A stretch of 64,000 nucleotides of DNA from Auanema rhodensis (lineage: Eukaryota > Animalia > Nematoda): positions 9,362,001 to 9,426,000 of the forward strand of contig OZ059899.1 in NCBI GenBank assembly GCA_964057225.1. The letters are read 5' to 3'. Below are positions 2,136 to 64,000 of the stretch, in pieces. Both the position numbers and the translations under genes were made by a program. The notes below the pieces were generated by a model. It was given only the letters and a program-made list of their open reading frames with translations, did not search any database and was not told the origin of the DNA. The stretch's first letter is position 1, and each line of letters begins with the position of its first letter.

Positions 2136-2208
2136 CTCCTAATTTCTCTCATCACAATTGTCTTAGTTTTTTTTTCTCATAAGAGTTTCTGAAATCTTAG
2201 TTGAACAA

Positions 2209-2281: not shown

Positions 2282-2285
2282 TAAA

Positions 2286-2292
2286 TTTTTTT
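2286..2292 (+). terminator. Pol III oligo-T terminator (representative; present after every tRNA copy)
   Basis: TAAA-TTTTTTT directly after the discriminator base. Confidence 0.85.
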
Positions 2293-3227
2293 CATTTCAC
2301 TTGTCATTCATAAAAATCGAATTTATTTTTTTCAATGATTTTTTTTTGCAATGTGTCATAAGAATTACACAGTTGAACAAAACGTTTTTTAAGAATTTTC
2401 TTTGTTGTCAACATATATATTTTCCTGGAATTCGAAAGCATTCGGGATGGAAATTAGAAAGAAAAGAACTAGTTTTTCCTACTTTAAAACAAACAATAAG
2501 AAATAAAATGAAAAAGATTGTTAGATATCCAATTTAAACTTATACATTTACTTCGATAAAGAGCCTATTAGATTGAAATTTTATGTCTTACAGTTCTCCA
2601 ACAGAACAGACTGATCCTGATTTTTCTACGATTACATAAAACTCTCGTTTGATATAAAAAAAGGAGAGGAATAACGTTTCCAGGATGTCAAGGATATCGA
2701 ATCTAGTGATATTGTAGAAAAATGTAATGTCAGCTCCATAGGTTTTCTCCTAATTTCTCTCATCACAATTGTCTTAGTTTTTTTTCTCATAAGAGTTTCT
2801 GAAATCTTAGGTGAACAAGGCCGTATATAATTTCCTGGAATTCGAAAGCATTTGGGATGGAATTTAGAAAGTAATGAACTAGTTTTTCCTACTTTAAAAC
2901 AAACAATAAGAAATAAAATGAAAAAGATTGTTAGATATCCAATTTAAACTTATACATTTACTTCGATAAAGAGCCTATTAGTTTGAAATTTTATGTCTTA
3001 CAGTTCTCCAACAGAACAGACTGATCCTGATTTTTCTACGATTACATAAAACTCTCGTTTGATATAAAAAAAGGAGAGGAATAACGTTTCCAGGATGTCA
3101 AGGATATCGAATCTAGTGATATTGTAGAGAAATGTAATGTCAGCTTCATAGCTTTTCTCTTGATTTCTCTCATCACAATTGTCTTAGTTTTTTTCTCATA
3201 AGAGTTTCTGAAATCTCAGTTAAACAA

Positions 3228-3300
3228 GGCCGCGTGGCGCAATGGATAACGCGTCTGCCTACGGAGCAGAAGATTGTAGGTTCGAATCCTGCCGTGGTCG
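3228..3300 (+). tRNA. tRNA-Arg(ACG), major type
   Basis: Same 73-mer with oligo-T terminator. Confidence 0.93.
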
Positions 3301-3837
3301 TAAATTTTTTTTTATTTCACTTGTCATTCATAAAAATCGAATTTATTTTTTTCAACGACTATTTTTGCAATGTGTCATAAGAATTTCACAGTTTAACAAA
3401 ACGTTTTTTAAGAAGTTTTTTTGTTGTCAACATATATATTTTGCTGGAATTCGAAAGCATTTGGGATGGAAATTAGAAAGAAAAGAACTAGTTTTTCCTA
3501 CTTTAAAACAAACAATAAGAAATAGAATGAAAAAGATTGTTAGATATCCAATTTAAACTTATACATTTACTTCGATAAAGAGCCTATTAGATTGAAATTT
3601 CATGTCTTACAGTTCTCCAACAGAACAGACTGATCCTGATTTTTCTACGATTACATAAAACTCTCGTTTGATATGAAAAAAGGAGAGGAATAACGTTTCC
3701 AGGATGTCAATGATATTGAATCTAGTGATATTGTAGAAAAATGTAATGTCAGCTCCATAGGTTTTCTCTTAATTTCTCTCATCACAATTGTCTTAGTTTT
3801 TTTTCTCATAAGAGTTTCTGAAATCTTTGTTGAACAA

Positions 3838-3910
3838 GGTCGCGTGGCGCAATGGATAACGCGTCTGCCTACGGAGCAGAAGATTATAGGTTCGAATCCT
3901 GCCGTGGTCG
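3838..3910 (+). tRNA. tRNA-Arg(ACG), variant B (C3T, G49A)
   Basis: GGTCGCG.../ATTATAGG; A49-C65 mismatch. Confidence 0.8.
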
Positions 3911-5266
3911 TAAATTTTTTTCATTTCACTTGTCATTCATAAAAATCGAATTTATTTTTTTCAATGATTTTTTTTTGCAATGTGTCATAAGAATTACACA
4001 GTTGAACAAAACGTTTTTTAAGAATTTTCTTTGTTGTCAACATATATATTTTCCTGGAATTCAAAAGCATTTGGGATGGAAATTAGAAAGAAAAGAACTA
4101 GTTTTTCCTACTTTAAAACAAACAATAAGAAATAAAATGAATAAGATTGTTAGATATCCAATTTAAACTTATACATTTACTTCGATAAAGAGCCTATTAG
4201 ATTGAAATTTTATGTCTTACAGTTCTCCAACAGAACAGACTGATCCTGATTTTTCTACGATTACATAAAACTCTCGTTTGATATAAAAAAAGGAGAGGAA
4301 CAACGTTTCCAGGATGTCAAGGATATCGAATCTAGTGATATTGTAGAAAAATGTAATGTCAGCTCCATAGGTTTTCTCCTAATTTCTCTCATCACAATTG
4401 TCCTAGTTTTTTTTCTCATAAGAGTTTCTGAAATCTTAGGTGAACAAGGCCGTATATAATTTCCTGGAATTCGAAAGCATTTGGGATGGAATTTAGAAAG
4501 TAATGAACTAGTTTTTCCTACTTTAAAACAAACAATAAGAAATAAAATGAAAAAGATTGTTAGATATCCAATTTAAACTTATACATTTACTTCGATAAAG
4601 AGCCTATTAGATTGAAATTTTATGTCTTACAGTTCTCCAACAGAACAGACTGATCCTGATTTTTCTACGATTACATAAAACTCTCGTTTGATATAAAAAA
4701 AGGAGAGGAACAACGTTTCCAGGATGTCAAGGATATCGAATCTAGTGATATTGTAGAAAAATGTAATGTCAGCTCCATAGGTTTTCTCCTAATTTCTCTC
4801 ATCACAATTGTCTTAGTTTTTTTTCTCATAAGAGTTTCTGAAATCTTAGGTGAACAAGGCCGTATATAATTTCCTGGAATTCGAAAGCATTTGGGATGGA
4901 ATTTAGAAAGTAATGAACTAGTTTTTCCTACTTTAAAACAAACAATAAGAAATAAAATGAAAAAGATTGTTAGATATCCAATTTAAACTTATACATTTAC
5001 TTCGATAAAGAGCCTATTAGTTTGAAATTTTATGTCTTACAGTTCTCCAACAGAACAGACTGATCCTGATTTCTCTATGATTACATAAAACTCCCGTTTG
5101 ATATAAAAAAAGGAGAGGAATAACGTTTCCAGGATGTCAAGGATATCGAATCTAGTGATATTGTAGAGAAATGTAATGTCAGCTTCATAGCTTTTCTCTT
5201 GATTTCTCTCATCACAATTGTCTTAGTTTTTTTCTCATAAGAGTTTCTGAAATCTCAGTTAAACAA

Positions 5267-5339
5267 GGCCGCGTGGCGCAATGGATAACGGGTCTACCTA
5301 CGGAGCAGAAAATTGTAGGTTCGAATCCTGCCGTGGTCT
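5267..5339 (+). pseudogene. Degenerate tRNA-Arg(ACG)
   Basis: C25G, G30A, G45A and G73T disrupt the D and anticodon stems. Confidence 0.75.
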
Positions 5340-5876
5340 TAAATTTTTTTTTATTTCACTTGTCATTCATAAAAATCGAATTTATTTTTTTCAACGACTA
5401 TTTTTGCAATGTGTCAGAAGAATTTCACAGTTTAACAAAACGTTTTTTAAAAAGTTTTTTTGTTGTCAACATATATATTTTGCTGGAATTCGAAAGCATT
5501 TGGGATGGAAATTAGAAAGAAAAGAACTAGTTTTTCCTACTTTAAAACAAACAATAAGAAATAGAATGAAAAAGATTGTTAGATATCCAATTTAAACTTA
5601 TACATTTACTTCGATAAAGAGCCTATTAGATTGAAATTTTATGTCTTACAGTTCTCCATCAGAACAGACTGATCCTGATTTTTCTACGATTACATAAAAC
5701 TCTCGTTTGATATGAAAAAAGAAGAGAAATAACGCTTCTAGGATATCAATGATATTGAATCTAGTGATATTGTAGAAAAATGTAATGTCAGCTCCATAGG
5801 TTTTCTCTTAATTTCTCTCATCACAATTGTCTTAGTTTTTTTTCTCATAAGAGTTTCTGAAATCTTTGTTGAACAA

Positions 5877-5949
5877 GGTCGCGTGGCGCAATGGATAACA
5901 CGTCTGCCTACGGAGCAGAAGATTATAGGTTCGAATCCTGCCGTGGTCG
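5877..5949 (+). tRNA. tRNA-Arg(ACG), variant B plus G24A (possible pseudogene)
   Basis: Variant B with an extra D-stem mismatch. Confidence 0.65.
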
Positions 5950-6266
5950 TAAATTTTTTTCATTTCACTTGTCATTTACAAAAATCGAATTTATCTTCTT
6001 CAACAATTATTTTTGCAATGTGTCATAAGAATTTCACAGTTGAACAAAACGTTTTTTAAGAAGTTTTTTTGTTGTCAACATATATATTTTGCTGAAATTC
6101 AAAAGCATTTGGGATGGAAATTAGAAAGAAAAGAACTAGTTTTTCCTACTTTAAAACAAACAATAAGAAATAAAATGAATAAGATTGTTAGATATCCAAT
6201 TTAAACTTATACATTTACTTCGATAAAGAGCCTATTAGTTTGAAATTTTATGTCTTACAGTTCTCC

Positions 6267-6647
6267 CGTTACATATTGTTTCTTCCCGTCTTTTCATGGT
6301 CGGAAGATATATGTACTTCTACCTTGTTCCTTAGGTAGGCAGACCCGAACGCCCCGATTTCCTTATTAAGACAAACACTCAAAGAGAAAAGGATTCATTA
6401 TCAGATAACAAGAAAATACAATATAAGAATTACATTAAGAAAGAATATAAAGAGATATAATGAAGTATTAAATAGAGTATATATATAGATGATATAGAGA
6501 TGAGACTCACATGGCTATAAGACAACCTATCTGGGTTAGGCCAGAAGCAAGAGTGCCATGTGTGTCCCATGTTGTAGGCGGGGCTTGTTCAGGCTCCCGC
6601 TATTTGAATAGCGCGCACATGTTTACCATGTGCTAGCAGATGTGACA
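6267..6647 (-). repeat. 3' LTR of Gypsy copy 1 (381 bp)
   Basis: Direct repeat of 16008-16388; minus strand TGTCACATC...ATGTAACG; preceded by the PPT. Confidence 0.97.
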
Positions 6648-6659
6648 TCCCCCCACCTT
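6648..6659 (-). promoter_or_regulatory. Polypurine tract
   Basis: AAGGTGGGGGGA immediately 5' of the 3' LTR on the minus strand. Confidence 0.9.
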
Positions 6660-7247: not shown

Positions 7248-10200
7248 TCAAGAAATTGTGATAACCGGAATAGATGTTGTCCGTTGGTAAGGTTTGACGA
7301 AGTCCTTGTGTACTCTTCTGCTTTTTCCTTTATCTGTTTGAACCACGACGAAAGATCTTTGAACTGCTGTAACTAAATAAGGCCCTTCGAATGAAGGTGT
7401 TAGTTTGTTTCGAGTAGAATTCACTTTTATCATAACTAAGTCATTAACCTGAATTTCTTTATTTTGTGTTCTATTTCGTGTATTGTACCGTTGTTCATTC
7501 TTCTTTGTGCATGTTTCAATTCTATCTTTTACTATATTAGATGTGCTTTCATTTTGTATTAGCGATCTATTGACAAAATCTTCTGTAGGATTGGCTGGTT
7601 CTTCAGTTTGAAGATTATTTCCAGGCAATTGATGGTCAATAGGAAGTCTTGCATCCCGACCAAATAATACAACATATGGACTAATAGATGTTGATGAGTT
7701 TGGTAACGTATTGATCGCAAACATAACTTTGGGTAGGTGTATATCCCAGTTAGTTTGTTGTTCATTCACGAATGAAGAGAGAGCTTCTTCCAAAGTTCTA
7801 TGAAGTCTCTCAACTTGTCCATTAGCATTTTTATGATATGGTAGCGTAGTAGTGTGTTTAATTCCAAATTGTTTACACATAGCTTGAAATTCAGATGACA
7901 AAAAGCTACTACCATTATCAGTTATCATACTCATTGGTGGTCCATATATGAAAACAAATCTAATTACAAACGCTTTTGTGATTTCAGTAGCCGTTTGTGT
8001 TATTAATGGGCAAGTTGTTCCCCATTTACTAAAAGCGTCTTGAATACTCAAGATGTATCGATGTCCATCATTAGTGCGAGGTAAAGGACCTAGTTTATCT
8101 ACATGAATACGATCAAATGGCTTTTCGGGTATAACAAATCTTCCCATAGGTTGAATATACGATTGGTGTGGGTTAGATTTCCTACTTGCACATTTTGTAC
8201 AACGATTAATAAATTCAGTTATTTGTGGAACCATATTAGTCCAAAAGAATCGTCGTCGAATCGCATCAGTAGTTTTATTTATACCTAGGTGTGCACCAAT
8301 TTTGGAATCTTCGTGAAAAAATTTGATGACAACATCAGTTATTTTGTCGTTTCGAGGCAAAATAATAGATGGTTTTAAATAATTTTTCGCTTGTTTTGCA
8401 TGTAATATGCCTTCTCGTTCTTCATACCGATCTGATATATTAGCCGGACAGTTATCATTATTAATTTGAGAAAGTGCTTCGCGAATCCAGGGAACTCCAG
8501 CTTGAACTTTCCGTATTTCTTCACAATTTAGTTGGTCAATAGAAGAAATAGTTGTAATATGAGCAATAAAAGCATCAACAGGTTTTACTTTGTCCTTTGG
8601 TTTAGTAGGACGACTGTCATTTGCTTCGTTTCCTATATACCTGGAGAGAGCATCACAGACACTGTTTAATTTGCCAGGACGATATTCAATCTTTATGTTG
8701 AAATCTTGTATCATTAGTTGATACTTGGCTAATCTACCTATGAGATCTTTACGCGACATTAAACTGGTTAATGGTCGGTGATCTGTGATAACTGTGGTAG
8801 GTACTCCTAATACATAGGTACGGAATTGTTGAAGAGCAAAGACTAAACCGAGTGCTTCAACTTCAATAGGAGGATATTTCCGTTCCGCTGGAGTCAACTT
8901 TCTACTAGCAAACGCAATCGGGTGCAATGGAGAATTTTTCTCTGCTGATTGCAATAAAACTGCTCCCACAGCGATCATACTGCCATCACTTTCTATAACA
9001 AAAGGTTGGTCTGCTTTAGGAGGTTTCAGTACAGGGGCAGTACACAGTGATGTTTTTAAAGTTTTAAATGCGTCTGCATGTTCCGATTTCCACTCAAAAG
9101 GAGTATCCTTATGTGTTAACTTATACAATGGCTCAGCTATTCCGGCATAATTTTGAATAAACCGTCGAAAATAGTTAGTCATACCTAGAAAGGATCTGAC
9201 AGCCGTAACTGTACTTGGATTTGGAAATTCGGAAACAGCCTGTATCTTAGCAGGATCTGGTTTAACACCATTTCTACCTATTACAAAACCCAAAAACTTT
9301 ACTTCAGTGGCTGCAAAGCAACATTTAGATAACTTAATTTTTAACCCTAGTTCAGTGACCTTTTTCAGCACTTCTTGTATATCTCTTAAATGTTCATCAG
9401 CTGAGTTCGAAATTATTAGCAAATCATCTAGATATACAAACAGTTTGCATCTAACAAGAGATTGCAAGTATCGTACTGCGGATTGAAAAGTGTGTGGCGC
9501 TCCACACAATCCCATAGGCATTCGGCAATACTGATAGGTACCTGATGGAGTGGTAAAAGCAGTTAGGTGTCTATCTGAGCGTTTCAACGGTATTTGGAAG
9601 AAACCAGAAATGAGATCAAAATTCGAAAAGAACTGAGCTCCAGCCGCTAAGTCTATGATATCAGGAATGTGTGGGATGCTGTATGTTTGTTTCTTAGTAA
9701 CACTATTCAATGCTCTAAAGTCAGTTACGAACCGGAAAGAATTATCTTTCTTTTTCACAAGAACAACTGGACTAGTGAAAGTAGCCGTCGAATTTTCGAT
9801 TATACCTTGCGACAACATTTCTTTCACTTGCCGTTCTACTTCTTCTTGCTTACCCAATGGTACTCTGTAAGATCTACTTTTTGGGAAATCCATATCGGAT
9901 CTTATAGGAATGGCATGTTCTACTGGTCCGCAAAAGAGACCAATATTATGATCATGGTTGAAAAATGCCGTTTGGTTTTCCTTAATGATTGTGATCAGAT
10001 TTTTCTTCATTTTATGGGACAGAGTGCAAGAATTGAAGTTCAAATCATCCAAAAGATGCTGAGGAAAAGTTGGTAACTTATCTTCCCAATCAGCTTCTGG
10101 TGGAACATAATCGTTCATAATTTCTTTAGATGCTATAAGTCCTGAACCAATGTGGTCATTTTTATTAATTTTAATTGGCTTTGAAGAATTGTTTGATACT

Positions 10201-13200
10201 ACCATAGTAATAGGAAAAGGTCCTATGGCGGCATCTGGAATTGAGATAGGACCTATGCTAGATTTTAAAAGAGCATATTGATCAAAATCTAATTCTGGTC
10301 CTGTTTGCAAAGATATGTGGGAGGTACTATGTGGTGGAACTGTTACTGTGGACAAACTTATGATATTTACTGTTTTAGTTGTGGTTTTATATGCAAAACA
10401 ACCAGGTTTTACTAAGGGTGTTTCCATATTACCAACAATCAACTTTCCTTTACATAGTTTTAATGTAGTAAATATCTCTCTTTCTTCCAACGTACGCATA
10501 AAATCAGTACCAAGTAACATTTGTCCTGGACAGTCATTGTCTTCAGATATTAAAAATTCGTGTTCCACTTGGTAACCTGCTATACCCACATCTAACTTGC
10601 ATTTTCCCACAAAGCGAAACTCTGATCCATTTGCAGTGGATGCAGATTTAGAATATTTTGTAAAATATTGTCTTCCAATATATGCCAATGTGGAGAACGG
10701 AATATATGAGACCGTAGCTCCAGAATCCCATAATGCTAACAGTCCTCTACCTTCAATGTCAATATGAACAAACGGTAACATGTGTCCATTTTTCTTTGTT
10801 GTTGTGTGACATACAAAAGGTATGGCTAAAGGAATGTAAGTTATTATGGTGGGAAAATAGCTCCGCATCAATTCATCACTAACTGTTTCATGAATCTCAT
10901 CTCCCTCAAGTGGTGGAGCTGTTGGGCTCAACATGATATGGTTTATTTTTAACATAGAAGTAGGGGAGAGATAACATTTTATAGTGAAATATAATGCTAT
11001 CATTAGACATAATATCAGAGTTATACAACCGATGGTAATGAGTGTTCGTTCAATTGAACCTATACAAAAGTCAATGAACAGATCCCAATTGGAGAAAACA
11101 ATTTTCCTGGCATCTCTTATAAGTTTACTTCCTTTGAAGATGAAAGAGGAAATTTGAGGCCAATCATGTGAACGAGAAATTACGCGGAGAAGATCATGGT
11201 GAGGTGAAGTAGATAAACTATAACCATAAGTTAATCCAATAGATAGGGCTAAGGATTTTTCAGTCGAATTTTCAAACAAATTCCGCCCTGTGAATCGAAG
11301 TTTACTCAATTCAGCATAATGATCATGTTTTTCTGAATGAATACTATCTACTTTATGTGTGTCACCTTTATAATCTCTCCATGTTCCATTTTCATACCAA
11401 ATCTCTGTCTCTTTGTGTTCACAATTGATCTCATGTCCTTCAGTGCTCAAATCGTAGCTATCGATAGGAGCAAAGAATAATTGTTTATCGTGTGTTAAAA
11501 CAGGGGTCTCTGCATAACATTTATCATTGTAAGAATGATTACGATAAATGAAATGTGGTTCTATTTCCTGACAAGTTGTTATTTTTAAAACATTTCTTCC
11601 AACAAATCGGGCAACGATATCATCCCGCTGAAGCATAGCTCGTACTCCTATTGTAGGATGTATACGTAATATAGCTTGCCAGCTTTTTACAGTTTCCATT
11701 TGAGATTTACAGATGGTATGAAACTGTTGATGAAATTCGTCAATTATGGAGAGACGCGCTTTCTCAAACCCATAATTCAACTTATTATCTATTATCGTTT
11801 TAGTTTTATGCTCTGATTTGTGGAGAACATTGTCATATACTTCTGCTACATACAACTCTCGACCTCTCTCGTACGCATTAGGGGTAGGAGTTGTTAAACT
11901 ACGAATTGTAGTTTTGGTGGCAGTTATTGGGGTTACAGTAGTATGATGTACCATATTTTTATCAGTTGTAATTTGAGTTTTAACCCAACTTATGAATTCT
12001 AAAACTTCTGTTTTATTGAATTTAGGATTTTCCTGTGGGTATTCGATGGACTGTGGAGGAAATCCATAATATGCTGTACTATTCTTTGTATAAAGGTTGT
12101 GATAGTCAGGCAGCTTGGATATAATTGCTAAATCTTGCTCTTGGTTATTTCTAACAGTAGCATCAGCTTTTTGTTGTCGACTGACTTGCATGTCACGAGA
12201 TATTTGTTCTTTTCCCGATTGTTGTTGGATCATGAATAACATGCCTTGAGCAGTTGCAATAATTTCAGATTGATTCATATTTCCACTGCGTGGTAATATA
12301 GATGGATATAAGGCTCTTGCCAACTGTTCGATTGATGGAACTGTTTGTGTACCATCAAGAATTGTGGCTTGATATACTACTGCGTGAGCCATCCCTCGAA
12401 AGAAATCTTCTATGGATGTTGTAGATTTCATCAAAGATCTTTTTAACCGAGGAACTTCTATACGACGAGCTACTTGAGTGATAAGATCATCCAATTTCAT
12501 GCTATTAATCACCTGTCTAGTAGCCAGTTTAATTTCCTCTATACCCACACATTGTAAAATCAAAAGATTGGGATCTTTGAAATTATTAGACTTTGCCCAG
12601 TTAGTTATGTGATCTTTTGTCAATCCTAAACTAACAATTGTGTCAATGAACAGTGGATTATCTATCGCGAATTGGAGCAAACTCTCATAAGATGATGTAG
12701 CTGCATATCTCATATATTTTGCGTAAAACTTAGTGATAGATGCAGATCCAAAAATGAAAGTAGGTCTTAGAAATGGAAACGCATATGGTTGGGATTTCGC
12801 ATTAACAAAAAGATAATCATCACTGAAAGAGCGATGTTTTTGAGGTAATGCATTACGTTTATTTCTGCGTTTATCAGCATTAAGCAAAGTATTGGAAAGA
12901 TCAAGCAAATTATAAACACGGGGATATGCTGTGAATCGGATAATTGCCTCAGAAGATGATTCAAAAACAGCGAATTCGAAACAAGATTGAACGTGAGCGG
13001 ATGTGGAATGATTTTGGAGAACAAAAGCGCTTTCAATAGAGTGAACTAGAAGAATATGATCACCCAACATGGCGGAGAAGGGGCCAAGTTTTTGATAGTG
13101 ACAGACAACTGATGGGATAGGTGGTTGCCAGATAACTGCACCTTCACCAGTTGCACAAAACCCTTCATTTCCTTTACAATTATCAGTATTTATAAATAAG

Positions 13201-14855
13201 TCTGATACAATGTGATCTTCTTTCAATCTAGTTATTATCCCTCGCTTCAATACAAATTGTTCAATTTCTACACATTCTTCAGTGGACCAAGAGCGAGTTG
13301 GATTATGCTCGTTTAATGGTGTTTCAAAAACTGAATGCTGTTGGGCATTCATGATTTTATCATTCCACATACGATTTCTATGTGCTCGAACACAATCTTT
13401 CTTATCTACTGTTTCAATATGAGAGAATGTGGTGTTACGATCTCTCAAAAACATGAAATCTCTCACACAGCTTTTATACTTTTTCACATAGCATTTCCAT
13501 GCTTCCCATGACTCTATCTCAGCCTTTGGTAGATATATTTCTACCTCAACACTGTGAGCCTTTTCAATTTCTGCCTTATGGCAGCCTGTGACCACAGGAG
13601 GTGTTACTAATATACCCCCTTCAGATTGAGCGCAAATCTGATATTTTGCCGACCCAAAGGGAAGGCATGAGAGTGCCAATAAAGTCAGGCACAACGTGAC
13701 CGGTGGCATGAATGGGGTCGCTACGCTGTATACCCTTGAGTTACCATTCCCATTGGCTGATGGTCTTTGTCTTCTTGGGGAACTAGGCCTAGGGTTCCAA
13801 GACGAGCTATTGGCATTTCTGCCATTGGCAAATGGGCGGTTTCCCGGGTTAGGACGCCTATTCATATTCCCGTTCTGCGAGTTATTATTATTATAACGTA
13901 CGGCAGAAGGTCGCTCTCTCTCTCGCTCATAATCATTAGAGCCATTATTGTGCTGAGTCCAGTTATTATTTTTTTTATTATTTTTATTATTTTTATAATT
14001 TTTATTATTATTATTATTCCTACTTCTTTCTCTTTCTTCACTAAAGCTTAATTTATGCTGTAAAGCATTTATGAGCTCCTTCAAGGTGCTGGTGTCTTCA
14101 TTTCTTTTCATGAAGCTATTACGAACGCCTTCTTCAAACCTAGCTAATTTCTTAGCTTGTTCATAAGTGGCGGGGTTTTTAGTTAAAACCGCAATACCCA
14201 GTTCCTCTTTTAAACCATTTAAAAATGCCGTTTTCAACATTGGTTCCCGCTCGGGATCCATTGGTGACATTATGGTGCTTGCCATTCTCTCTAATTCCAT
14301 ACTAAAATCAAGAACAGATTTATCTCCTTGTTGTACTCGATGAATAAGCGCTATGGTGAAATTTTTATCTGTTTTAGGCGCTAAAAGCTCAGTGAGCTGA
14401 TCCATCAAAACAATCCATGATCCATTAGTTCTTATGCCACTAGGAATACTATTATACAAGGAGAGAGCTGTTTCATTTGATTCCAAAAGAAGAGGCAAAA
14501 TTAATAGTCTCTCAGGTAAGCTTAGATTCATAACATTAAAAAATCTATTTAAAGATTCAACAAAAGAACGAAAGCTACGAGAGCCGTCATACCTGGGACA
14601 GAGATGGCAATTCAAAATAGTTGCCATATTTCTAGAGGGTGGAGCAACATTAGAATTAGGAGATGGAGAGGTAGGAGTCATTTTTCTTTCAAAAGCTTTA
14701 GTTATAGCAGCGGCCCACCGACTTGGTGATCTATTTCGTACTGTAGTAGGTGCCCGAGGTGTTTCCTCAGTGATGGCCTTTCTGCTTTTACTTCTCGTTC
14801 TAATTGTTAGAGAAGAAGAGTGAGAAGAAGAAGAGGAATCACCTTCTTCTCTCAA
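7248..14855 (-). CDS. Gag-Env-Pol polyprotein (Gag CA, signal peptide, gB-like glycoprotein, TM, aspartic protease, RT, RNase H, integrase). Start uncertain: first ATG at 14681, frame open from ~15000
   Basis: 2535-aa ORF. Gag: RYDGSRSF, QQGDKSVLDF, FLNGLKEEL. PR: ALWDSGA (10719-10727). RT: FDLISGFFQI, MPMGL, YLDD (9423-9434). RNase H: ESDGS, EVEAL, TDH, DALSR. IN: HHCC, HVD/TDNG/NGQVER and FEGPY. Confidence 0.95.
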   Translation of the reverse strand: MREEGDSSSSSHSSSLTIRTRSKSRKAITEETPRAPTTVRNRSPSRWAAAITKAFERKMTPTSPSPNSNVAPPSRNMATILNCHLCPRYDGSRSFRSFVESLNRFFNVMNLSLPERLLILPLLLESNETALSLYNSIPSGIRTNGSWIVLMDQLTELLAPKTDKNFTIALIHRVQQGDKSVLDFSMELERMASTIMSPMDPEREPMLKTAFLNGLKEELGIAVLTKNPATYEQAKKLARFEEGVRNSFMKRNEDTSTLKELINALQHKLSFSEERERSRNNNNNKNYKNNKNNKKNNNWTQHNNGSNDYERERERPSAVRYNNNNSQNGNMNRRPNPGNRPFANGRNANSSSWNPRPSSPRRQRPSANGNGNSRVYSVATPFMPPVTLCLTLLALSCLPFGSAKYQICAQSEGGILVTPPVVTGCHKAEIEKAHSVEVEIYLPKAEIESWEAWKCYVKKYKSCVRDFMFLRDRNTTFSHIETVDKKDCVRAHRNRMWNDKIMNAQQHSVFETPLNEHNPTRSWSTEECVEIEQFVLKRGIITRLKEDHIVSDLFINTDNCKGNEGFCATGEGAVIWQPPIPSVVCHYQKLGPFSAMLGDHILLVHSIESAFVLQNHSTSAHVQSCFEFAVFESSSEAIIRFTAYPRVYNLLDLSNTLLNADKRRNKRNALPQKHRSFSDDYLFVNAKSQPYAFPFLRPTFIFGSASITKFYAKYMRYAATSSYESLLQFAIDNPLFIDTIVSLGLTKDHITNWAKSNNFKDPNLLILQCVGIEEIKLATRQVINSMKLDDLITQVARRIEVPRLKRSLMKSTTSIEDFFRGMAHAVVYQATILDGTQTVPSIEQLARALYPSILPRSGNMNQSEIIATAQGMLFMIQQQSGKEQISRDMQVSRQQKADATVRNNQEQDLAIISKLPDYHNLYTKNSTAYYGFPPQSIEYPQENPKFNKTEVLEFISWVKTQITTDKNMVHHTTVTPITATKTTIRSLTTPTPNAYERGRELYVAEVYDNVLHKSEHKTKTIIDNKLNYGFEKARLSIIDEFHQQFHTICKSQMETVKSWQAILRIHPTIGVRAMLQRDDIVARFVGRNVLKITTCQEIEPHFIYRNHSYNDKCYAETPVLTHDKQLFFAPIDSYDLSTEGHEINCEHKETEIWYENGTWRDYKGDTHKVDSIHSEKHDHYAELSKLRFTGRNLFENSTEKSLALSIGLTYGYSLSTSPHHDLLRVISRSHDWPQISSFIFKGSKLIRDARKIVFSNWDLFIDFCIGSIERTLITIGCITLILCLMIALYFTIKCYLSPTSMLKINHIMLSPTAPPLEGDEIHETVSDELMRSYFPTIITYIPLAIPFVCHTTTKKNGHMLPFVHIDIEGRGLLALWDSGATVSYIPFSTLAYIGRQYFTKYSKSASTANGSEFRFVGKCKLDVGIAGYQVEHEFLISEDNDCPGQMLLGTDFMRTLEEREIFTTLKLCKGKLIVGNMETPLVKPGCFAYKTTTKTVNIISLSTVTVPPHSTSHISLQTGPELDFDQYALLKSSIGPISIPDAAIGPFPITMVVSNNSSKPIKINKNDHIGSGLIASKEIMNDYVPPEADWEDKLPTFPQHLLDDLNFNSCTLSHKMKKNLITIIKENQTAFFNHDHNIGLFCGPVEHAIPIRSDMDFPKSRSYRVPLGKQEEVERQVKEMLSQGIIENSTATFTSPVVLVKKKDNSFRFVTDFRALNSVTKKQTYSIPHIPDIIDLAAGAQFFSNFDLISGFFQIPLKRSDRHLTAFTTPSGTYQYCRMPMGLCGAPHTFQSAVRYLQSLVRCKLFVYLDDLLIISNSADEHLRDIQEVLKKVTELGLKIKLSKCCFAATEVKFLGFVIGRNGVKPDPAKIQAVSEFPNPSTVTAVRSFLGMTNYFRRFIQNYAGIAEPLYKLTHKDTPFEWKSEHADAFKTLKTSLCTAPVLKPPKADQPFVIESDGSMIAVGAVLLQSAEKNSPLHPIAFASRKLTPAERKYPPIEVEALGLVFALQQFRTYVLGVPTTVITDHRPLTSLMSRKDLIGRLAKYQLMIQDFNIKIEYRPGKLNSVCDALSRYIGNEANDSRPTKPKDKVKPVDAFIAHITTISSIDQLNCEEIRKVQAGVPWIREALSQINNDNCPANISDRYEEREGILHAKQAKNYLKPSIILPRNDKITDVVIKFFHEDSKIGAHLGINKTTDAIRRRFFWTNMVPQITEFINRCTKCASRKSNPHQSYIQPMGRFVIPEKPFDRIHVDKLGPLPRTNDGHRYILSIQDAFSKWGTTCPLITQTATEITKAFVIRFVFIYGPPMSMITDNGSSFLSSEFQAMCKQFGIKHTTTLPYHKNANGQVERLHRTLEEALSSFVNEQQTNWDIHLPKVMFAINTLPNSSTSISPYVVLFGRDARLPIDHQLPGNNLQTEEPANPTEDFVNRSLIQNESTSNIVKDRIETCTKKNEQRYNTRNRTQNKEIQVNDLVMIKVNSTRNKLTPSFEGPYLVTAVQRSFVVVQTDKGKSRRVHKDFVKPYQRTTSIPVITIS
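10980..13700 (-). other. env: Envelope glycoprotein domain (class III fusogen, herpesvirus gB/chuvirus G-like) within the polyprotein
   Basis: Internal signal peptide VTLCLTLLALSCLPFGSA, Cys-rich ectodomain with ~8 N-glycosylation sequons, furin sites KRRNKR and RLKR, gB-like segment ICKSQ..W..ILRIHPT...DDIVARFVGRNVLKITTC...CYAETPV, and TM LITIGCITLILCLMIALYFTI. Confidence 0.8.
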
Positions 14856-15994
14856 AAATTCAAAAGGAGAGAGGTAGGTGGATGGAGTATTTAAGTTTTT
14901 AGAATTAAATTCAAAAACTTGGCGTACCTCTGGTGATCCTTGTTCCTGATCTTTGTTTTCCTCGCTGATGTCCGAGTCCGACAGGGTGGCTGGTGAATAC
15001 AGTTAGATGAATATAAGAGCGCGTACTGGAAGCAACTAGACTCCAGTAAAAACGTTTGTGACAATGGCGTCTGATGAAGGAGGATCGTTGAAGCTTCAAG
15101 CTCCGCCTCCAGCCATGTGTCACGACACCAGATGTTAGCGCTTATGGTAAACAACCATTGACCGTCTGTCGTGATATTTGAATATTATAATCACTTATGT
15201 CAGCTTAGAGACAAATAAGGAATCACAGATGGTGCCTTAAGCCTGTTTGAAAACTTTTGAATTTTAACAGCTGTTATTGACTACACATATCGAACAGCTG
15301 GTACGCGTGGGCCAACTATTTGAATGTGAGTAAGCTTAAAGTAAACAAAAATGTCTCATCTCGTATATTAAGTTCAATTTTATAAAGTTTATTAAGATTT
15401 GTAGAAAGAATTTCAAAATAAATCTTAATTAAGATAATTTTTAATTTGATTTCAAAAGATTTAGAAGGTAATTTAAGATTGATATAGGAATTTAAATTCA
15501 GTAATCTGTCAATAATATAGGAAAAAGGAAACGTTGGCAGACGTAGAGTGGACTTGGGTGGGTAGGAATTTAAATGTTCTTATTATCTCTGAACTAATAA
15601 GAAAAGAGTTAACAGGAGTAGAACCCTGATGAACCCTTGGATGTGAATCAAAATAAAAAATCGTAAATAAAATTATCCCACCAGCCTCCAGCTTCCAAAC
15701 AACTCAGCTAAAAAGTGAGCTCTGTTGCCACACTGGACATTCACATCATAAAGTAATGAATCAAAATAGCACGCGCGTGCATAACAAAAAGGTAACGCTC
15801 GTCAAAACTATTGTCTGATAGTTTCCCCAAACGTCTCAGACACCTCCCAGTTTTCGTTGAGCGGAGGAGAAGTGGTAGCCAAAATAATTTTTGGGGAAAT
15901 CATGGTGCACGGCTCGGTTACTCCTCACTGTTGGGTAATTAAGTCCAAAAGTCTCGTAAACTTGCTGTCAATAAATTAACAGTAAAGTAAGCAA

Positions 15995-16007
15995 GGTGGA
16001 ACCTCCA
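15995..16007 (-). promoter_or_regulatory. Primer-binding site complementary to the tRNA-Gln 3' end (copy 1)
   Basis: TGGAGGTTCCACC directly after the 5' LTR, the complement of ...GGTGGAACCT-CCA of eukaryotic tRNA-Gln. Confidence 0.88.
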
Positions 16008-16388
16008 CGTTACATATCGTTTCTTCCCGTCTTTTCATGGTCGGAAGATATATGTACTTCTACCTTGTTCCTTAGGTAGGCAGACCCGAACGCCCCGATT
16101 TCCTTATTAAGACAAATACTCAAAGAGAAAAGGATTCATTATCAGATAACAAGAAAATACAATATAAGAATTACATTAAGAAAGAATATAAAGAGATATA
16201 ATGAAGTATTAAATAGAGTATATATATAGATGATATAGAGATGAGACTCACATGGCTATAAGACAACCTATCTGGGTTAGGCCAGAAGCAAGAGTGCCAT
16301 GTGTGTCCCATGTTGTAGGCGGGGCTTGTTCAGGCTCCCGCTATTTGAATAGCGCGCACATGTTTACCATGTGCTAGCAGATGTGACA
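16008..16388 (-). repeat. 5' LTR of Gypsy copy 1 (381 bp)
   Basis: Direct repeat of 6267-6647; followed by the PBS; flanked by TSD CTCC. Confidence 0.97.
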
Positions 16389-16611
16389 CTCCAACAGAAC
16401 AGACTGATCCTGATTTCTCTATGATTACATAAAACTCCCGTTTGATATAAAAAAAGGAGAGGAATAACGTTTCCAGGATGTCAAGGATATCGAATCTAGT
16501 GATATTGTAGAAAAATGTAATGTCAGCTCCATAGGTTTTCTCCTAATTTCTCTCATCACAATTGTCTTAGTTTTTTTTCTCATAAGAGTTTCTGAAATCT
16601 TTGTTGAACAA

Positions 16612-54996: not shown

Positions 54997-55377
54997 TGTC
55001 ACATCTGCAAGCACATGGTAAACATGTGCGCGCTATTCAAATAGCGGGAGCCTGAACAAGCCCCGCCCACAACATGGGACACACATGGCACTCTTGCTTC
55101 TGGCCTAACCCAGATAGGTTGTCTTATAGTCATGTGAGTCTCATCTCTATATCATCTATATATATACTCTATTTAATACTTTATTAGATCTCTTTATATT
55201 CTTTCTTAATGTAATTCTTATATTGTATTTTCTTGTTATCTGATAATGAATCCTTTTCTCTTTAAGTATTTGTCTTAATAAGGAAATCGGGGCGTTCGGG
55301 TCTGCCTACCTAAGGAACAAGGTAGAAGTACATATATCTTCCGACCATGAAAAGACGGGAAGAAACAATATGTAACG
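54997..55377 (+). repeat. 5' LTR of Gypsy copy 2 (381 bp)
   Basis: TGTCACATC...ATGTAACG; about 6-7 substitutions versus the copy-1 LTRs. Confidence 0.95.
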
Positions 55378-55390
55378 TGGAGGTTCCACC
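55378..55390 (+). promoter_or_regulatory. Primer-binding site (tRNA-Gln), copy 2
   Basis: TGGAGGTTCCACC immediately after the LTR. Confidence 0.88.
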
Positions 55391-56530
55391 TTGCTTACTT
55401 TACTGTTAATTTATTGACAGCAAGTTTACGAGACTTTTGGACTTAATTACCCAACAGTGAGGAGTAACCGAGCCGTGCACCATGATTTCCCCAAAAATTA
55501 TTTTGGCTACCACTTCTCCTCCGCTCAACGAAAACTGGGAGGTGTCTGAGACGTTTGGGGAAACTATCAGACAATAGTTTTGACGAGCGTTACCTTTTTG
55601 TTATGCACGCGCGTGCTATTTTGATTCATTACTTTATGATGTGAATGTCCAGTGTGGCAACAGAGCTCACTTTTTAGCTGAGTTGTTTGGAAGCTGGAGG
55701 CTGTTGGGATAATTTTATTTACGATTTTTTGATTTTGATTCACATCCAAGGGTTCATCAGGGTTCTACTCCTGTTAACTCTTTTCTTATTAGTTCAGAGA
55801 TAATAAGAATATTTAAATTCCTACCCACCCAAGTCCACTCTACGTCTGCCAACGTTTCCTTTTTCCTATATTATTGACAGATTACTGAATTTAAATTCCT
55901 ATATCAATCTTAAATTACCTTCTAAATCTTTTGAAATTAAATTAAAAATTATCTTAATTAAGATTTATTTTGAAATTCTTTCTACAAATCTTAATAAACT
56001 TTATAAAATTGAACTTAATATACGAGATGAGACATTTTTGTTTACTTTAAGCTTACTCACATTCAAATAGTTGGCCCACGCGTACCAGCTGTTCGATATG
56101 TGTAGTCAATAACAGCTGTTAAAATTCAAAAGTTTTCAAACAGGCTTAAGGCACCATCTGTGATTCCTTATTTGTCTCTAAGCTGACATAAGTGATTATA
56201 ATATTCAAATATCACGACAGACGGTCAATGGTTGTTTACCATAAGCGCTAACATCTGGTGTCGTGACACATGGCTGGAGGCGGAGCTTGAAGCTTCAACG
56301 ATCCTCCTTCATCAGACGCCATTGTCACAAACGTTTTTACTGGAGTCTAGTTGCTTCCAGTACGCGCTCTTATATTCATCTAACTGTATTCACCAGCCAC
56401 CCTGTCGGACTCGGACATCAGCGAGGAAAACAAAGATCAGGAACAAGGATCACCAGAGGTACGCCAAGTTTTTGAATTTAATTCTAAAAACTTAAATACT
56501 CCATCCACCTACCTCTCTCCTTTTGAATTT

Positions 56531-59500
56531 TTGAGAGAAGAAGGTGATTCCTCTTCTTCTTCTCACTCTTCTTCTCTAACAATTAGAACGAGAAGTAAAA
56601 GCAGAAAGGCCATCACTGAGGAAACACCTCGGGCACCTACTACAGTACGAAATAGATCACCAAGTCGGTGGGCCGCTGCTATAACTAAAGCTTTTGAAAG
56701 AAAAATGACTCCTACCTCTCCATCTCCTAATTCTAATGTTGCTCCACCCTCTAGAAATATGGCAACTATTTTGAATTGCCATCTCTGTCCCAGGTATGAC
56801 GGCTCTCGTAGCTTTCGTTCTTTTGTTGAATCTTTAAATAGATTTTTTAATGTTATGAATCTAAGTTTACCTGAGAGACTATTAATTTTACCTCTTCTTT
56901 TGGAATCAAATGAAACAGCTCTCTCCTTGTATAATAGTATTCCTAGTGGCATAAGAACTAATGGCCCATGGATTGTTTTGATGGATCAGCTCACTGAGCT
57001 TTTAGCGCCTAAAACAGATAAAAATTTCACCATAGCGCTTATTCATCGAATACAACAAGGAGATAAATCTGTTCTCGATTTTAGTATGGAATTAGAGAGA
57101 ATGGCAAGCACCATAATGTCACCAATGGATCCCGAGCGGGAACCAATGTTGAAAACGGCATTTTTAAATGGTTTAAAAGAGGAACTGGGTATTGCGGTTT
57201 TAACTAAAAACCCCGCCACTTATGAACAAGCTAAGAAATTAGCTAGGTTTGAAGAAGGCGTTCGGAATAGCTTCATGAAAAGAAATGAAGACACCAGCAC
57301 CTTGAAGGAGCTCATAAATGCTTTACAACATAAATTAAGCTTTAGTGAAGAAAGAGAAAGAAGTAGGAATAATAATAATAATAAAAATTATAAAAATAAT
57401 AAAAATAATAAAAAAAATAATAACTGGACTCAGCACAATAATGGCTCTAATGATTATGAGCGAGAGAGAGAGCGACCTTCTGCCGTACGTTATAATAATA
57501 ATAACTCGCAGAACGGGAATATGAATAGGCGTCCTAACCCGGGAAACCGCCCATTTGCCAATGGCAAAAATGCCAATAGCTCGTCTTGGAACCCTAGGCC
57601 TAGTTCCCCAAGAAGACAAAGACCATCAGCCAATGGGAATGGTAACTCAAGGGTATACAGCGTAGCGACCCCATTCATGCCACCGGTCACGTTGTGCCTG
57701 ACTTTATTGGCACTCTCATGCCTTCCCTTTGGGTCGGCAAAATATCAGATTTGCGCTCAATCTGAAGGGGGTATATTAGTAACACCTCCTGTGGTCACAG
57801 GCTGCCATAAGGCAGAAATTGAAAAGGCTCACAGTGTTGAGGTAGAAATATATCTACCAAAGGCTGAGATAGAGTCATGGGAAGCATGGAAATGCTATGT
57901 GAAAAAGTATAAAAGCTGTGTGAGAGATTTCATGTTTTTGAGAGATCGTAACACCACATTCTCTCATATTGAAACAGTAGATAAGAAAGATTGTGTTCGA
58001 GCACATAGAAATCGTATGTGGAATGATAAAATCATGAATGCCCAACAGCATTCAGTTTTTGAAACACCATTAAACGAGCATAATCCAACTCGCTCTTGGT
58101 CCACTGAAGAATGTGTAGAAATTGAACAATTTGTATTGAAGCGAGGGATAATAACTAGATTGAAAGAAGATCACATTGTATCAGACTTATTTATAAATAC
58201 TGATAATTGTAAAGGAAATGAAGGGTTTTGTGCAACTGGTGAAGGTGCAGTTATCTGGCAACCACCTATCCCATCAGTTGTCTGTCACTATCAAAAACTT
58301 GGCCCCTTCTCCGCCATGTTGGGTGATCATATTCTTCTAGTTCACTCTATTGAAAGCGCTTTTGTTCTCCAAAATCATTCCACATCCGCTCACGTTCAAT
58401 CTTGTTTCGAATTCGCTGTTTTTGAATCATCCTCTGAGGCAATTATCCGATTCACAGCATATCCCCGTGTTTATAATTTGCTTGATCTTTCCAATACTTT
58501 GCTTAATGCTGATAGACGCAGAAATAAACGTAATGCATTACCTCAAAAACATCGCTCTTTCAGTGATGATTATCTTTTTGTTAATGCGAAATCCCAACCA
58601 TATGCGTTTCCATTTCTAAGACCTACTTTCATTTTTGGATCTGCATCTATCACTAAGTTTTACGCAAAATATATGAGATATGCAGCTACATCATCTTATG
58701 AGAGTTTGCTCCAATTCGCGATAGATAATCCACTGTTCATTGACACAATTGTTAGTTTAGGATTGACAAAAGATCACATAACTAACTGGGCAAAGTCTAA
58801 TAATTTCAAAGATCCCAATCTTTTGATTTTACAATGTGTGGGTATAGAGGAAATTAAACTGGCTACTAGACAGGTGATTAATAGCATGAAATTGGATGAT
58901 CTTATCACTCAAGTAGCTCGTCGTATAGAAGTTCCTCGGTTAAAAAGATCTTTGATGAAATCTACAACATCCATAGAAGATTTCTTTCGAGGGATGGCCA
59001 CGCAGTAGTATATCAAGCCACAATTCTTGATGGTACACAAACAGTTCCATCAATCGAACAGTTGGCAAGAGCCTTATATCCATCTATATTACCACGCAGT
59101 GGAAATATGAATCAATCTGAAATTATTGCAACTGCTCAAGGCATGTTATTCATGATCCAACAACAATCGGGAAAAGAACAAATATCTCGTGACATGCAAG
59201 TCAGTCGACAACAAAAAGCTGATGCTACTGTTAGAAATAACCAAGAGCAAGATTTAGCAATTATATCCAAGCTGCCTGACTATCACAACCTTTATACAAA
59301 GAATAGTACAGCATATTATGGATTTCCTCCACAGTCCATCGAATACCCACAGGAAAATCCTAAATTCAATAAAACAGAAGTTTTAGAATTCATAAGTTGG
59401 GTTAAAACTCAAATCACAACTGATAAAAATATGGTACAGCATACTACTGTAACCCCAATAACTTCCACCAAAACTACAATTCGTAGTTTAACAACTCCTA

Positions 59501-62500
59501 CCCCTAATGCGTACGAGAGAGGTCGAGAGTTGTATGTAGCAGAAGTATATGACAATGTTCTCCACAAATCAGAGCATAAAACTAAAACGATAATAGATAA
59601 TAAGTTGAATTATGGGTTTGAGAAAGCGCGTCTCTCCATAATTGACGAATTTCATCAACAGTTTCATACCATCTGTAAATCTCAAATGGAAACTGTAAAA
59701 AGCTGGCAAGCTATATTACGTATACATCCTACAATAGGAGTACGAGCTATGCTTCAGCGGGATGATATCGTTGCCCGATTTGTTGGAAGAAATGTTTTAA
59801 AAATAACAACTTGTCAGGAAATAGAACCACATTTCATTTATCGTAATCATTCTTACAATGATAAATGTTATGCAGAGACCCCTGTTTTAACACACGATAA
59901 ACAATTATTCTTTGCTCCTATCGATAGCTACGATTTGAGCACTGAAGGACATGAGATCAATTGTGAACACAAAGAGACAGAAATTTGGTATGAAAATGGA
60001 ACATGGAGAGATTATAAAGGTGACACACATAAAGTAGATAGTATTCATTCAGAAAAACATGATCATTATGCTGAATTGAGTAAACTTCGATTCACAGGGC
60101 GGAATTTGTTTGAAAATTCGACTGAAAAATCCTTAGCCCTATCTATTGGATTAACTTATGGTTATAGTTTATCTACTTCACCTCACCATGATCTTCTCCG
60201 CGTAATTTCTCGTTCACGTGATTGGCCTCAAATTTCCTCTTTCATCTTCAAAGGAAGTAAACTTATAAGAGATGCCAGGAAAATTGTTTTCTCCAATTGG
60301 GATCTGTTCATTGACTTTTGTATAGGTTCAATTGAACGAACACTCATTACCATCGGTTGTATAACTCTGATATTATGTCTAATGATAGCATTATATTTCA
60401 CTATAAAATGTTATCTCTCCCCTACTTCTATGTTAAAAATAAACCATATCATGTTGAGCCCAACAGCTCCACCACTTGAGGGAGATGAGATTCATGAAAC
60501 AGTTAGTGATGAATTGATGCGGAGCTATTTTCCCACCATCATAACTTACATTCCTTTAGCCATACCTTTTGTATGTCACACAACAACAAAGAAAAATGGA
60601 CACTTGTTACCGTTTGTTCATATTGACATTGAAGGTAGAGGACTGTTAGCATTATGGGATTCTGGAGCTACGGTCTCATATATTCCGTTCTCCACATTGG
60701 CATATATTGGAAGACAATATTTTACAAAATATTCTAAATCTGCATCCACTGCAAATGGATCAGAGTTTCGCTTTGTGGGAAAATGCAAGTTAGATGTGGG
60801 TATAGCAGGTTACCAAGTGGAACACGAATTTTTAATATCTGAAGACAATGACTGTCCAGGACAAATGTTACTTGGTACTGATTTTATGCGTACGTTGGAA
60901 GAAAGAGAGATATTTACTACATTAAAACTATGTAAAGGAAAGTTGATTGTTGGTAATATGGAAACACCCTTAGTAAAACCTGGTTGTTTTGCATATAAAA
61001 CCACAACTAAAACAGTAAATATCATAAGTTTGTCCACAGTAACAGTTCCACCACATAGTACCTCCCACATATCTTTGCAAACAGGACCAGAATTAGATTT
61101 TGATCAATATGCTCTTTTAAAATCTAGCACAGGTCCTATCTCAATTCCAGATGCCGCCATAGGACCTTTTCCTATTACTATGGTAGTATCAAACAATTCT
61201 TCAAAGCCAATTAAAATTAATAAAAATGACCACATTGGTTCAGGACTTATAGCATCTAAAGAAATTATGAACGATTATGTTCCACCTGAAGCTGATTGGG
61301 AAGATAAGTTACCAACTTTTCCTCAGCATCTTTTGGATGATTTGAACTTCAATTCTTGCACTCTGTCCCATAAAATGAAGAAAAATCTGATCACAATCAT
61401 TAAGGAAAACCAAACGGCATTTTTCAACCATGATCATAATATTGGTCTCTTTTGCGGACCAGTTGAACATGCCATTCCTATAAGATCTGATATGGATTTT
61501 CCAAAAAGTAGATCTTACAGAGTACCATTGGGTAAGCAAGAAGAAGTAGAACGGCAAGTGAAAGAAATGTTGTCGCAAGGTATAATCGAAAATTCGACGG
61601 CTACTTTCACTAGTCCAGTTGTTCTTGTGAAAAAGAAAGATAATTCTTTCCGGTTCGTTACTGACTTTAGAGCATTGAATAGTGTTACTAAGAAACAAAC
61701 ATACAGCATCCCACACATTCCTGATATCATAGACTTAGCGGCTGGAGCTCAGTTCTTTTCGAATTTTGAAAACTCATTTCTGGTTTCTTCCAAATACCGT
61801 TGAAACACTCAGATAGATACCTAACTGCTTTTACCACTCCATCAGGTACCTATCAGTATTGCCGAATGCCTATGGGATTGTGTGGAGCGCCACACACTTT
61901 TCAATCCGCAGTACGATACTTGCAATCTCTTGTTAGATGCAAACTGTTTGTATATCTAGATGATTTGCTAATAATTTCGAACTCAGCTGAAGAACATTTA
62001 AGAGATATACAAGAAGTGCTGAACAAGGTCACTGAACTAGGGTTAAAAATTAAGTTATCTAAATGTTGCTTTGCAGCCACTGAAGTAAAGTTTTTGGGTT
62101 TTATAATAGGTAGAAATGGTGTTAAACCAGATCCTGCTAAAATACAGGCTGTTTCCGAATTTCCAAATCCAAGCACAGTTACGGCTGTCAGATCCTTTCT
62201 AGGTATGACTAACTATTTTCGACGGTTTATTCAAAATTATGCCGGAATAGCTGAGCCATTGTATAAGTTAACACATAAGGATACTCCTTTTGAGTGGAAA
62301 TCGGAACATGCAGACGCATTTAAAACTTTAAAAACATTACTGTGTACTGCCCCTGTACTGAAACCTCCTAAAGCAGACCAACCTTTTGTTATAGAAAGTG
62401 ATGGCAGTATGATCGCTGTGGGAGCAGTTTTATTGCAATCAGCAGAGAAAAATTCTCCATTACACCCGATTGCGTTCGCTAGTAGAAAGTTGACTCCAGC

Positions 62501-64000
62501 GGAACGGAAATATCCTCCTATTGAAGTTGAAGCACTCGGTTTAGTCTTTGCTCTTCAACAATTCCGTACCTATGTATTAGGAGTACCTACCACAGTTATC
62601 ACAGATCACCGACCATTAACCAGTTTAATGTCGCGTAAAGATCTCATAGGTAGATTAGCCAAGTATCAACTAATGATACAAGATTTCAACATAAAGATTG
62701 AATATCGTCCTGGCAAATTAAACAGTGTCTGTGATGCTCTCTCCAGGTATATAGGAAACGAAGCAAATGACAGTCGTCCTACTAAACCAAAGGACAAAGT
62801 AAAACCTGTTGATGCTTTTATTGCTCATATCACAACTATTTCTTCTATTGACCAACTAAATTGTGAAGAAATACGGAAAGTTCAAGCTGGAGTTCCCTGG
62901 ATTCGCGAAGCACTTTCTCAAATTAATAATGATAACTGTCCGGCTAATATATCAGACCGGTATGAAGAACGAGAAGGCATATTACATGCAAAACAAGCGA
63001 AAAATTATTTGAAACCATCTATTATTTTGCCTCGTAACGACAAAATAACTGATGTTGTTATCAAGTTTTTTCATGAAGATTCCAAAATTGGTGCACACCT
63101 AGGTATAAATAAAACTACTGATGCGATTCGACGACGATTCTTTTGGACTAATATGGTTCCACAAATAACTGAATTTATTAATCGTTGTACAAAATGTGCA
63201 AGTAGGAAATCTTATCCACACCAATCGTATATTCAACTTATGGGAAGATTTGTTATACCCGAAAAGCCATTTGATCGTATTCATGTAGATATACTAGGTC
63301 CTTTACCTCGCACTAATGATGGACATCGATACATCTTGAGTATTCAAGACGCTTTTAGTAAATGGGGAACAACTTGCCCATTAATAACACAAACGGCTAC
63401 TGAAATCACAAAAGCGTTTGTAATTAGATTTGTTTTCATATATGGACCACCAATGAGTATGATAACCGATAATGGTAGTAGCTTTTTGTCATCTGAATTT
63501 CAAGCTATGTGTAAACAATTTGGAATTAAACACACTACTACGCTACCATATCATAAAAATGCTAATGGACAAGTTGAGAGACTTCATAGAACTTTAGAAG
63601 AAGCTCTATCTTCATTCGTGAATGAACAACAAACTAACTGGGATATACACCTACCTAAAGTTATGTTTGCGATCAATACGTTACCAAACTCATCAACATC
63701 TATTAGTCCATATGTTGTATTATTTGGTCGGGATGCAAGACTTCCTATTGACCATCAATTGCCTGGAAATAATCTTCAAACTGAAGAACCAGCCAATCCT
63801 ACAGAAGATTTTGTCAATAGATCGCTAATACAAAATGAAAGCACATCTAATATAGTAAAAGATAGAATTGAAACATGCACAAAGAAGAATGAACAACGGT
63901 ACAATACACGAAATAGAACACAAAATAAAGAAATTCAGGTTAATGACTTAGTTATGATAAAAGTGAATTCTACTCGAAACAAACTAACACCTTCATTCGA
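56531..64000 (+). pseudogene. Frameshifted gag-env-pol polyprotein of copy 2 (fragments 56531-59008, 59062-61803, ~61773->64000)
   Basis: 1-nt deletion at ~58998 (ATGGCCACG vs ATGGCTCACG) in env; +2 change at ~61770 (TTTGAAAACTC vs TTTGATCTC) removes the first catalytic Asp of RT. Confidence 0.88.

Follow-up and report, generated by a model that had tools for sequence, protein, structure and literature searches.

An intact Ty3/gypsy element of Auanema rhodensis with a predicted class III fusion protein between gag and protease

Described nematode elements and the Auanema locus

According to the accessible text of Chary & Hayashi (eLife 2026, PMC13524379), errantiviruses of Nematoda, Bryozoa and Platyhelminthes carry env of the HSV/gB type only, in the order GAG-ENV-POL. 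All 36 Nematoda elements catalogued there are ENV_HSV, cysteine bridges divide the envs into subtypes C1a, C1d, C2a and C2c, the acquisition of env is considered very ancient, and the discussion describes the entry mechanism of nematode retroelements with class III fusogens as still unknown. The same text credits the flipped env-pol order in nematodes to Sacco et al. 2022 (J Gen Virol 103:1739), whose title, as given in its reference list, claims the capture of genes from an RNA virus. The accessible part of PMC9094657 describes the same env family in another nematode retroelement, Ascaris Tas of the BEL/Pao type. The preliminary description of the locus had cited this gB-like env of TAS correctly, and BEL/Pao homologues with the same env family were also recovered in our searches.

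The element described here lies in a stretch of 64,000 nucleotides of an Auanema rhodensis contig, hereafter the window (Table 1). With the nematode GAG-ENV-POL errantiviruses it shares the gene order, a gB-type env, LTRs and a primer site for tRNA-Gln; in the accessible catalogue, 8 of the 36 nematode rows have a Gln primer site, and two Caenorhabditis rows contain the element's exact 12-mer (PMC13524379). A GAG-ENV-POL arrangement with a gB-type env is already described for nematodes, and our element adds a young, intact member to this known group of retroelements with class III fusogens. Tas and BEL/Pao elements have YVDN, Peptidase_A17 and env after integrase, whereas the element has YLDD, gypsy domains and env before protease; neither a YVDN RT, nor a Pao peptidase (Peptidase_A17), nor an env after integrase was found in it. 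The NERVs of Sacco and colleagues reportedly consist of one continuous gag-env-pro-pol ORF with a Nyamiviridae-like env, some of them having accessory ORFs. The element resembles them in the flipped env-pol order and, given their reported Nyamiviridae-like env, in the viral structures that its env matches (see below). Unlike some NERVs, it has no evident accessory ORFs, its 3' untranslated stretch containing only ORFs of 43 and 49 codons.

Table 1. Features of the element and its second copy, numbered from the first letter of the window
Feature	Position	Strand	Details
5' LTR	16008..16388	-	381 bp; ends TG...CG; 2 mismatches vs 3' LTR
Primer-binding site	15996..16007	-	complementary to tRNA-Gln 3' end; directly after 5' LTR
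Leader, long 5'	14682..15995	-	short upstream ORFs; GT donor at 14927 inside
GT...AG-bounded segment	10826..14927	-	4102 nt, all gag and env; missing in joined form of public runs
Single gag-env-pro-pol ORF	7248..14681	-	2477 codons from first ATG; open frame begins at 15002 (2584 codons between stops)
gag	13716..14681	-	Retrotrans_gag PF03732, E 4e-4, below cut-off; residues 178-266; Asn/Arg-rich nucleocapsid-like stretch
Internal signal-like hydrophobic segment	13650..13709	-	hydropathy; precedes env
env N-half	12915..13649	-	predicted domains I/II, candidate fusion loops (env residues 65-68, W121), 10 conserved cysteines
Furin-like site RNKR	12855..12866	-	sequence
Insert, domain II-III linker	11850..12854	-	predicted helical bundle, then Thr/Pro-rich stretch
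env C-half	11214..11849	-	predicted central helix (domain III), crown (domain IV); contains motif 11723-11499
Predicted transmembrane anchor	10968..11045	-	19-residue hydropathy up to 2.6
Aspartyl protease	10494..10766	-	Pfam; residues 1413-1503
Reverse transcriptase, YLDD	9279..9758	-	Pfam; residues 1749-1908
RNase H	8700..9092	-	Pfam; residues 1971-2101
Integrase	7368..8342	-	Pfam; residues 2221-2390; H2C2 finger, rve core, GPY motif
Polypurine tract	6648..6659	-	precedes 3' LTR
3' LTR	6267..6647	-	381 bp
Target-site duplication, 4 bp	6263..6266; second copy 16389-16392	.	within tRNA-Arg array spacer
Second element copy	54997..64000	+	99.3% identical; window end cuts it

The locus is an intact Ty3/gypsy LTR element and a recent insertion. 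Its ORF encodes, in order, gag, an internal signal, env, a transmembrane segment, protease, RT, RNase H and integrase; pol follows the protease-RT-RNase H-integrase order of Ty3/gypsy, and the gB-type env stands between gag and pol of an element furnished with LTRs and a primer site. Hydropathy of the ORF reveals just two hydrophobic segments, directly before and directly after env. The empty insertion site is represented within the window by 81 matching units of the surrounding array and in public runs by an empty-site joint with a 4-letter overlap.

The second copy has two frameshifts, near 58999 in env and near 61771 in RT. Over the coding sequence, the two copies of the gag-env-pol element show 19 nonsynonymous and 31 synonymous differences (ratio 0.17); in env alone the counts are 4 and 3 (p 0.18), too few to judge selection. 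Synonymous divergence between 7387-16388 and 54997-64000 is about 0.03 in gag and pol and 0.005 in env, all from small counts, and the low value in env may hint at recombination between the copies. The 3' ends of LTRs processed by integrase usually have the form CA; all three LTRs here end in CG (16008, 6267 and, in the second copy, 55377), and the 4-bp duplication is nonetheless clean.

The tandem tRNA-Arg(ACG) array, with units of about 410/610 bp, extends over 2200-6262 and 16393-54996 and comprises 45 genes by ARAGORN and 82 repeat copies. Three LTR elements border or interrupt it. At 3-1631 (-) lies the start of a BEL/Pao element, whose gag has DUF1759 (E 5e-16) and zinc knuckles and which runs past the start of the window. 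Targeting of tRNA genes at a fixed distance was considered and is unsupported, the two copies occupying different places in the array unit; a literature search returned nothing on point concerning LTR elements in nematode tRNA arrays.

Predicted fold of the envelope

The gB-like motif noticed earlier (FHTICKSQ...CYAETPV) is encoded at 11723-11499 (-), where our gB alignments match the segment just as it had been seen, the likeness to gB exceeding chance, and the YQIC start is likewise present on the minus strand, from 13643. The range first assigned to the envelope, 11490..13650, encloses both and stops short of the remaining ectodomain and of the transmembrane segment, which reach to about 10968; the preliminary description is also silent on the in-frame position of env between gag and protease.

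Taken alone, env matches Pfam Glycoprotein_B with 21.9 bits (E 1.4e-4), under the cut-off of 43, the match within the whole ORF being similarly weak (residues 1073-1164, E 4.5e-4); it had no match to Monjiviricetes_fusion at E 0.01, and phmmer against the PDB returned nothing relevant. A search of 1.84 billion representatives yielded 248 env homologues at E <= 0.001, 150 of which were listed, most of these matching both ends of the ectodomain. From them we built a profile of 40 sequences (alignment A1: the query and 39 of the 150 listed homologues, mostly under 1100 residues), which found herpes gB chains in the PDB down to E 6e-14 via the C-half of env, with the W-C / NP / ARF-G / C / CY segment in register. 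Among the 40 members of the alignment, 32 match Monjiviricetes_fusion and 21 Glycoprotein_B. The N-half of the same profile matched four PDB chains named 'Glycoprotein' (E about 1e-5), which we take to be rhabdovirus G; since a 13-sequence profile of the N-half had no match in the PDB, this likeness to rhabdovirus G belongs to the 40-sequence profile only.

A correspondence between the cysteines of env and gB, anticipated in the preliminary description, holds for six of them and fails for eight. Cysteines of gB are aligned with env C6, C23, C647, C693, C711 and C743 (N-terminal strand, domains III/IV), each of which is kept in 97-100% of the covering homologues in the sequence alignment, any disulfide pairing among them being putative. 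The eight cysteines of the N-half (C53-C223) are conserved in the family and fall outside the gB alignments, and the cysteine pattern of gB domains I/II was not found; the spacing of C53-C223 presumably resembles that of rhabdovirus G. Positions 66, 67 and 121, at predicted hairpin tips, are hydrophobic in 30/32, 25/32 and 32/34 homologues, respectively, the second loop being otherwise polar here. A hydrophobic segment similar to the putative internal signal stands ahead of env in all 16 homologous polyproteins examined.

The AlphaFold model of env has a mean pLDDT of 69.7 and a pTM of 0.46, with residues 1-260 and 600-770 mostly above 80. Its top Foldseek match in the PDB is a class III fusogen, as had been expected of it, namely post-fusion HSV gB (E 4e-11), with a TM-score of 0.19 by query length, which is low because about 40% of the ectodomain is either insert or poorly predicted. 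Superposition of residues 1-811 of the model on post-fusion HSV gB with VIA gave Z 13.0 and an rmsd of 6.6 over 404 aligned residues. The predicted fold agrees with that of class III fusogens, which comprises a beta-rich fusion domain, PH-like domains, a long central helix and a crown. Among the predicted viral structures of BFVD, the best matches were glycoproteins of nyamivirus-like and other negative-strand RNA viruses: Beihai rhabdo-like virus 3 and, with it at the top, Nyavirus (E 3e-16 to 4e-14), then also a hemipteran rhabdo-related virus and Keturi virus, herpes gB appearing at rank 6; structural identity to BFVD viral proteins is 7-15%. No F-type Pfam family was found in the ORF at E up to 1, and the residues after RNKR are polar, unlike class I proteins of the F type, in which a fusion peptide follows the furin site immediately.

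Taken together, the profile, Foldseek and VIA matches agree with the original assignment of the envelope to class III rather than to the baculovirus F type: env is predicted to be a class III fusion protein of the gB / chuvirus-G type. In the model, its fusion domain is closer to RNA-virus G proteins than to gB. With herpesvirus gB it shares the predicted post-fusion fold (model residues 1-811) and the six cysteines in register, and it differs from gB in an identity of about 10-13%, in the unaligned cysteines of domains I/II, in the 380-residue linker and in being embedded in a polyprotein.

This linker comprises about 380 residues between RNKR and the central helix, the family median being 63 and the range 17-513 (85 of 151 rows, those in which both env halves exceed 15 bits). 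Only one of 33 other long inserts shares the sequence found here, that of an Auanema protein (26% over 253 residues, E 5e-14). Searches with the insert gave no Pfam family below E 0.02, no match among PDB sequences and no match or homologue in the ESM Atlas and a word index; a two-sequence model was poor (pLDDT 42) and had no Foldseek match at E 0.001, which says nothing about the fold. A death-domain-like reading, made by eye, found no support in the Pfam, PDB, ESM Atlas and Foldseek searches and was dropped. Judging by its position, the insert most likely serves attachment or shielding, and if it binds a receptor, a lone gB-type protein would attach without the helper glycoproteins that herpesviruses need. 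Other insert families, mutually unrelated, occupy the same env linker in P0026/P0035/P0037/P0052/P0120 and in P0013/P0016/P0031. In its accessible part, the main text of PMC13524379 refers neither to a linker insert nor to a polyprotein or to splicing.

Proposed mechanism and the GT-AG junction

Overall, we would give a probability of about 0.9 to the reading that this is an intact, recent Ty3/gypsy element with a predicted class III fusogen between gag and protease, that env was inherited with pol, and that the element operates as follows. The polyprotein would pass through the ER membrane: its internal signal would leave Gag in the cytosol and direct Env into the lumen, and the transmembrane segment of Env would return protease, RT and integrase to the cytosol, where the element's own protease would free them. 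Host furin would cleave Env at RNKR, and Env trimers on budding particles would then fuse membranes and let the element pass between cells, probably from soma to germline. The linker after the furin site would be a hypervariable slot, holding an extra helical domain in this case.

How Pol is supplied is the point on which another scenario has to be weighed. Foamy viruses supply Pol from a separate spliced RNA, and it is conceivable, though rather unlikely, that a spliced RNA skipping gag and env supplies Pol here besides the polyprotein, with short derivatives descending from that RNA. A joint 10825/14928 with canonical ends (AG|GT donor, TTTAG acceptor) was found in 6 of 8 public runs and in all four studies, three of the six runs having at least 31 letters on the short side; one of the runs may be the window's own source. 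The probability that chance alone yields GT..AG at any of the three possible cuts does not exceed 0.8%, and the protease domain follows the acceptor by about 20 codons, an ATG at 10781 being in frame, all of which speaks for splicing of a pol RNA. Against it, two out-of-frame ATGs precede the in-frame one, no more than 15 of 39 rows, counting the query, have a Met there, and no run that contains the element is on record as RNA. Moreover, runs guessed to be DNA contain the joint, and in two contigs a near-complete deletion of pol comes within 34-43 nt after it.

Since the joint occurs in runs guessed to be DNA and almost all of pol is lost in those two contigs, the most economical interpretation is a family of short non-coding copies made from spliced RNA, and signal in RNA runs can come from such non-coding derivatives. 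In the three runs guessed to be RNA, coverage of env is thin or lacking, which we do not take as evidence. Apparently, there is a derivative family of about 2.7 kb consisting of the leader, the GT-AG junction, a short piece, the pol deletion and the 3' end. Further joined forms in the public runs are 10792/7500, 10783/7449 and 7446/7487; one run contains a second GT-AG skip, of 40 nt, in which the short side has just 22 letters.

It is tempting, and no more than speculative, to extend the spliced-RNA scenario: leader-to-protease splicing might uncouple the enzymes from the membrane-bound polyprotein, the pol RNA might be packaged and have seeded short non-coding parasites, and captured attachment domains might be exchanged at the linker. 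Should the spliced leader-to-protease RNA prove functional, it would account for control over the amount of Pol and its location in an element with a single ORF. In the open-access literature, a search returned nothing pertinent on a spliced pol RNA, or on non-autonomous derivatives, in elements of this type; the spliced mRNA that Cer1 uses is for a different protein (PMC10309623, accessible part).

A less probable scenario still is that env is a relic of the fold that no longer fuses membranes and that the element moves strictly within cells. Refolding could be impeded by the large insert, copies without env appear to be common in DNA runs and env is frameshifted in the second copy. However, a long insert at this position is nothing unusual in the family, given the range of linker lengths above, and this env has kept all 14 cysteines conserved in the family as well as its signal, furin-like site and anchor, the hydrophobic first loop and W121. 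The openness of the env frame was not counted here because the frame must stay open for pol.

Lineage of the envelope

The reading in which env came with pol can be followed in the trees, all of which were built without viral sequences. The named homologues with the best scores belong to Auanema, Caenorhabditis and Acrobeloides, and 8 of 10 homologues looked up are named nematode proteins. Env precedes RT in all 31 RT-matching homologues among the 150 listed of 248; five other listed homologues are BEL/Pao-like, four having a Pao peptidase and a C-terminal env (4 of 18 scanned). In the RT tree (19 rows), the element groups with nematode GAG-ENV-POL members as sister to an element of C. japonica, 58% identical (support 100/99), the pair lying inside an 11-row clade (100/96) that includes P0037, whose cluster-mate P0160 comes from C. 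brenneri and may be the catalogued Cbre_errantivirus_2. In the tree of the env N-half (26 rows), the element is sister to five Caenorhabditis envs, among them that of the C. japonica element (SH-aLRT 95). Both env trees place the five BEL/Pao envs on another side (support 94); the C-half tree (33 rows) was made by a quick fallback method, and support for the deep branches of the env trees is weak. Among the listed homologues, the closest relatives are 58% identical in RT and 31% in env.

Grouping of both env and RT with Caenorhabditis elements argues that the capture was neither recent nor private to this lineage, env having probably come down together with pol from an older GAG-ENV-POL lineage of nematodes. 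Deeper in time, env may still have been captured from an RNA virus. The independent capture proposed in the preliminary description would predict discordant glycoprotein and RT trees, and the two share the same nearest relatives instead. Such a recent acquisition of a class III env by this lineage, from a negative-strand RNA virus or a BEL/Pao element, is very improbable: RNA-virus glycoproteins are the best BFVD matches, the profile N-half matches the four 'Glycoprotein' chains, the env family occurs in BEL/Pao elements too and RNA-virus gene capture stands in the title of Sacco 2022, but against this are the concordant relatives, the separate placement of the five BEL/Pao envs in both env trees, the arrangement common to the 36 catalogued nematode elements and a structural identity to viral proteins of only 7-15%.

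Finally, two minor observations can be added. A metagenome scan found one distant locus (L001, 31% in pol), in which a 453-codon ORF is followed by one of 1177 codons, leaving no room for env between them. Five proteins of Steinernema (P0049, P0065, P0067, P0089 and P0132), 668-1104 residues long, have an env starting near the N-terminus and could be separate env ORFs or host-domesticated genes.
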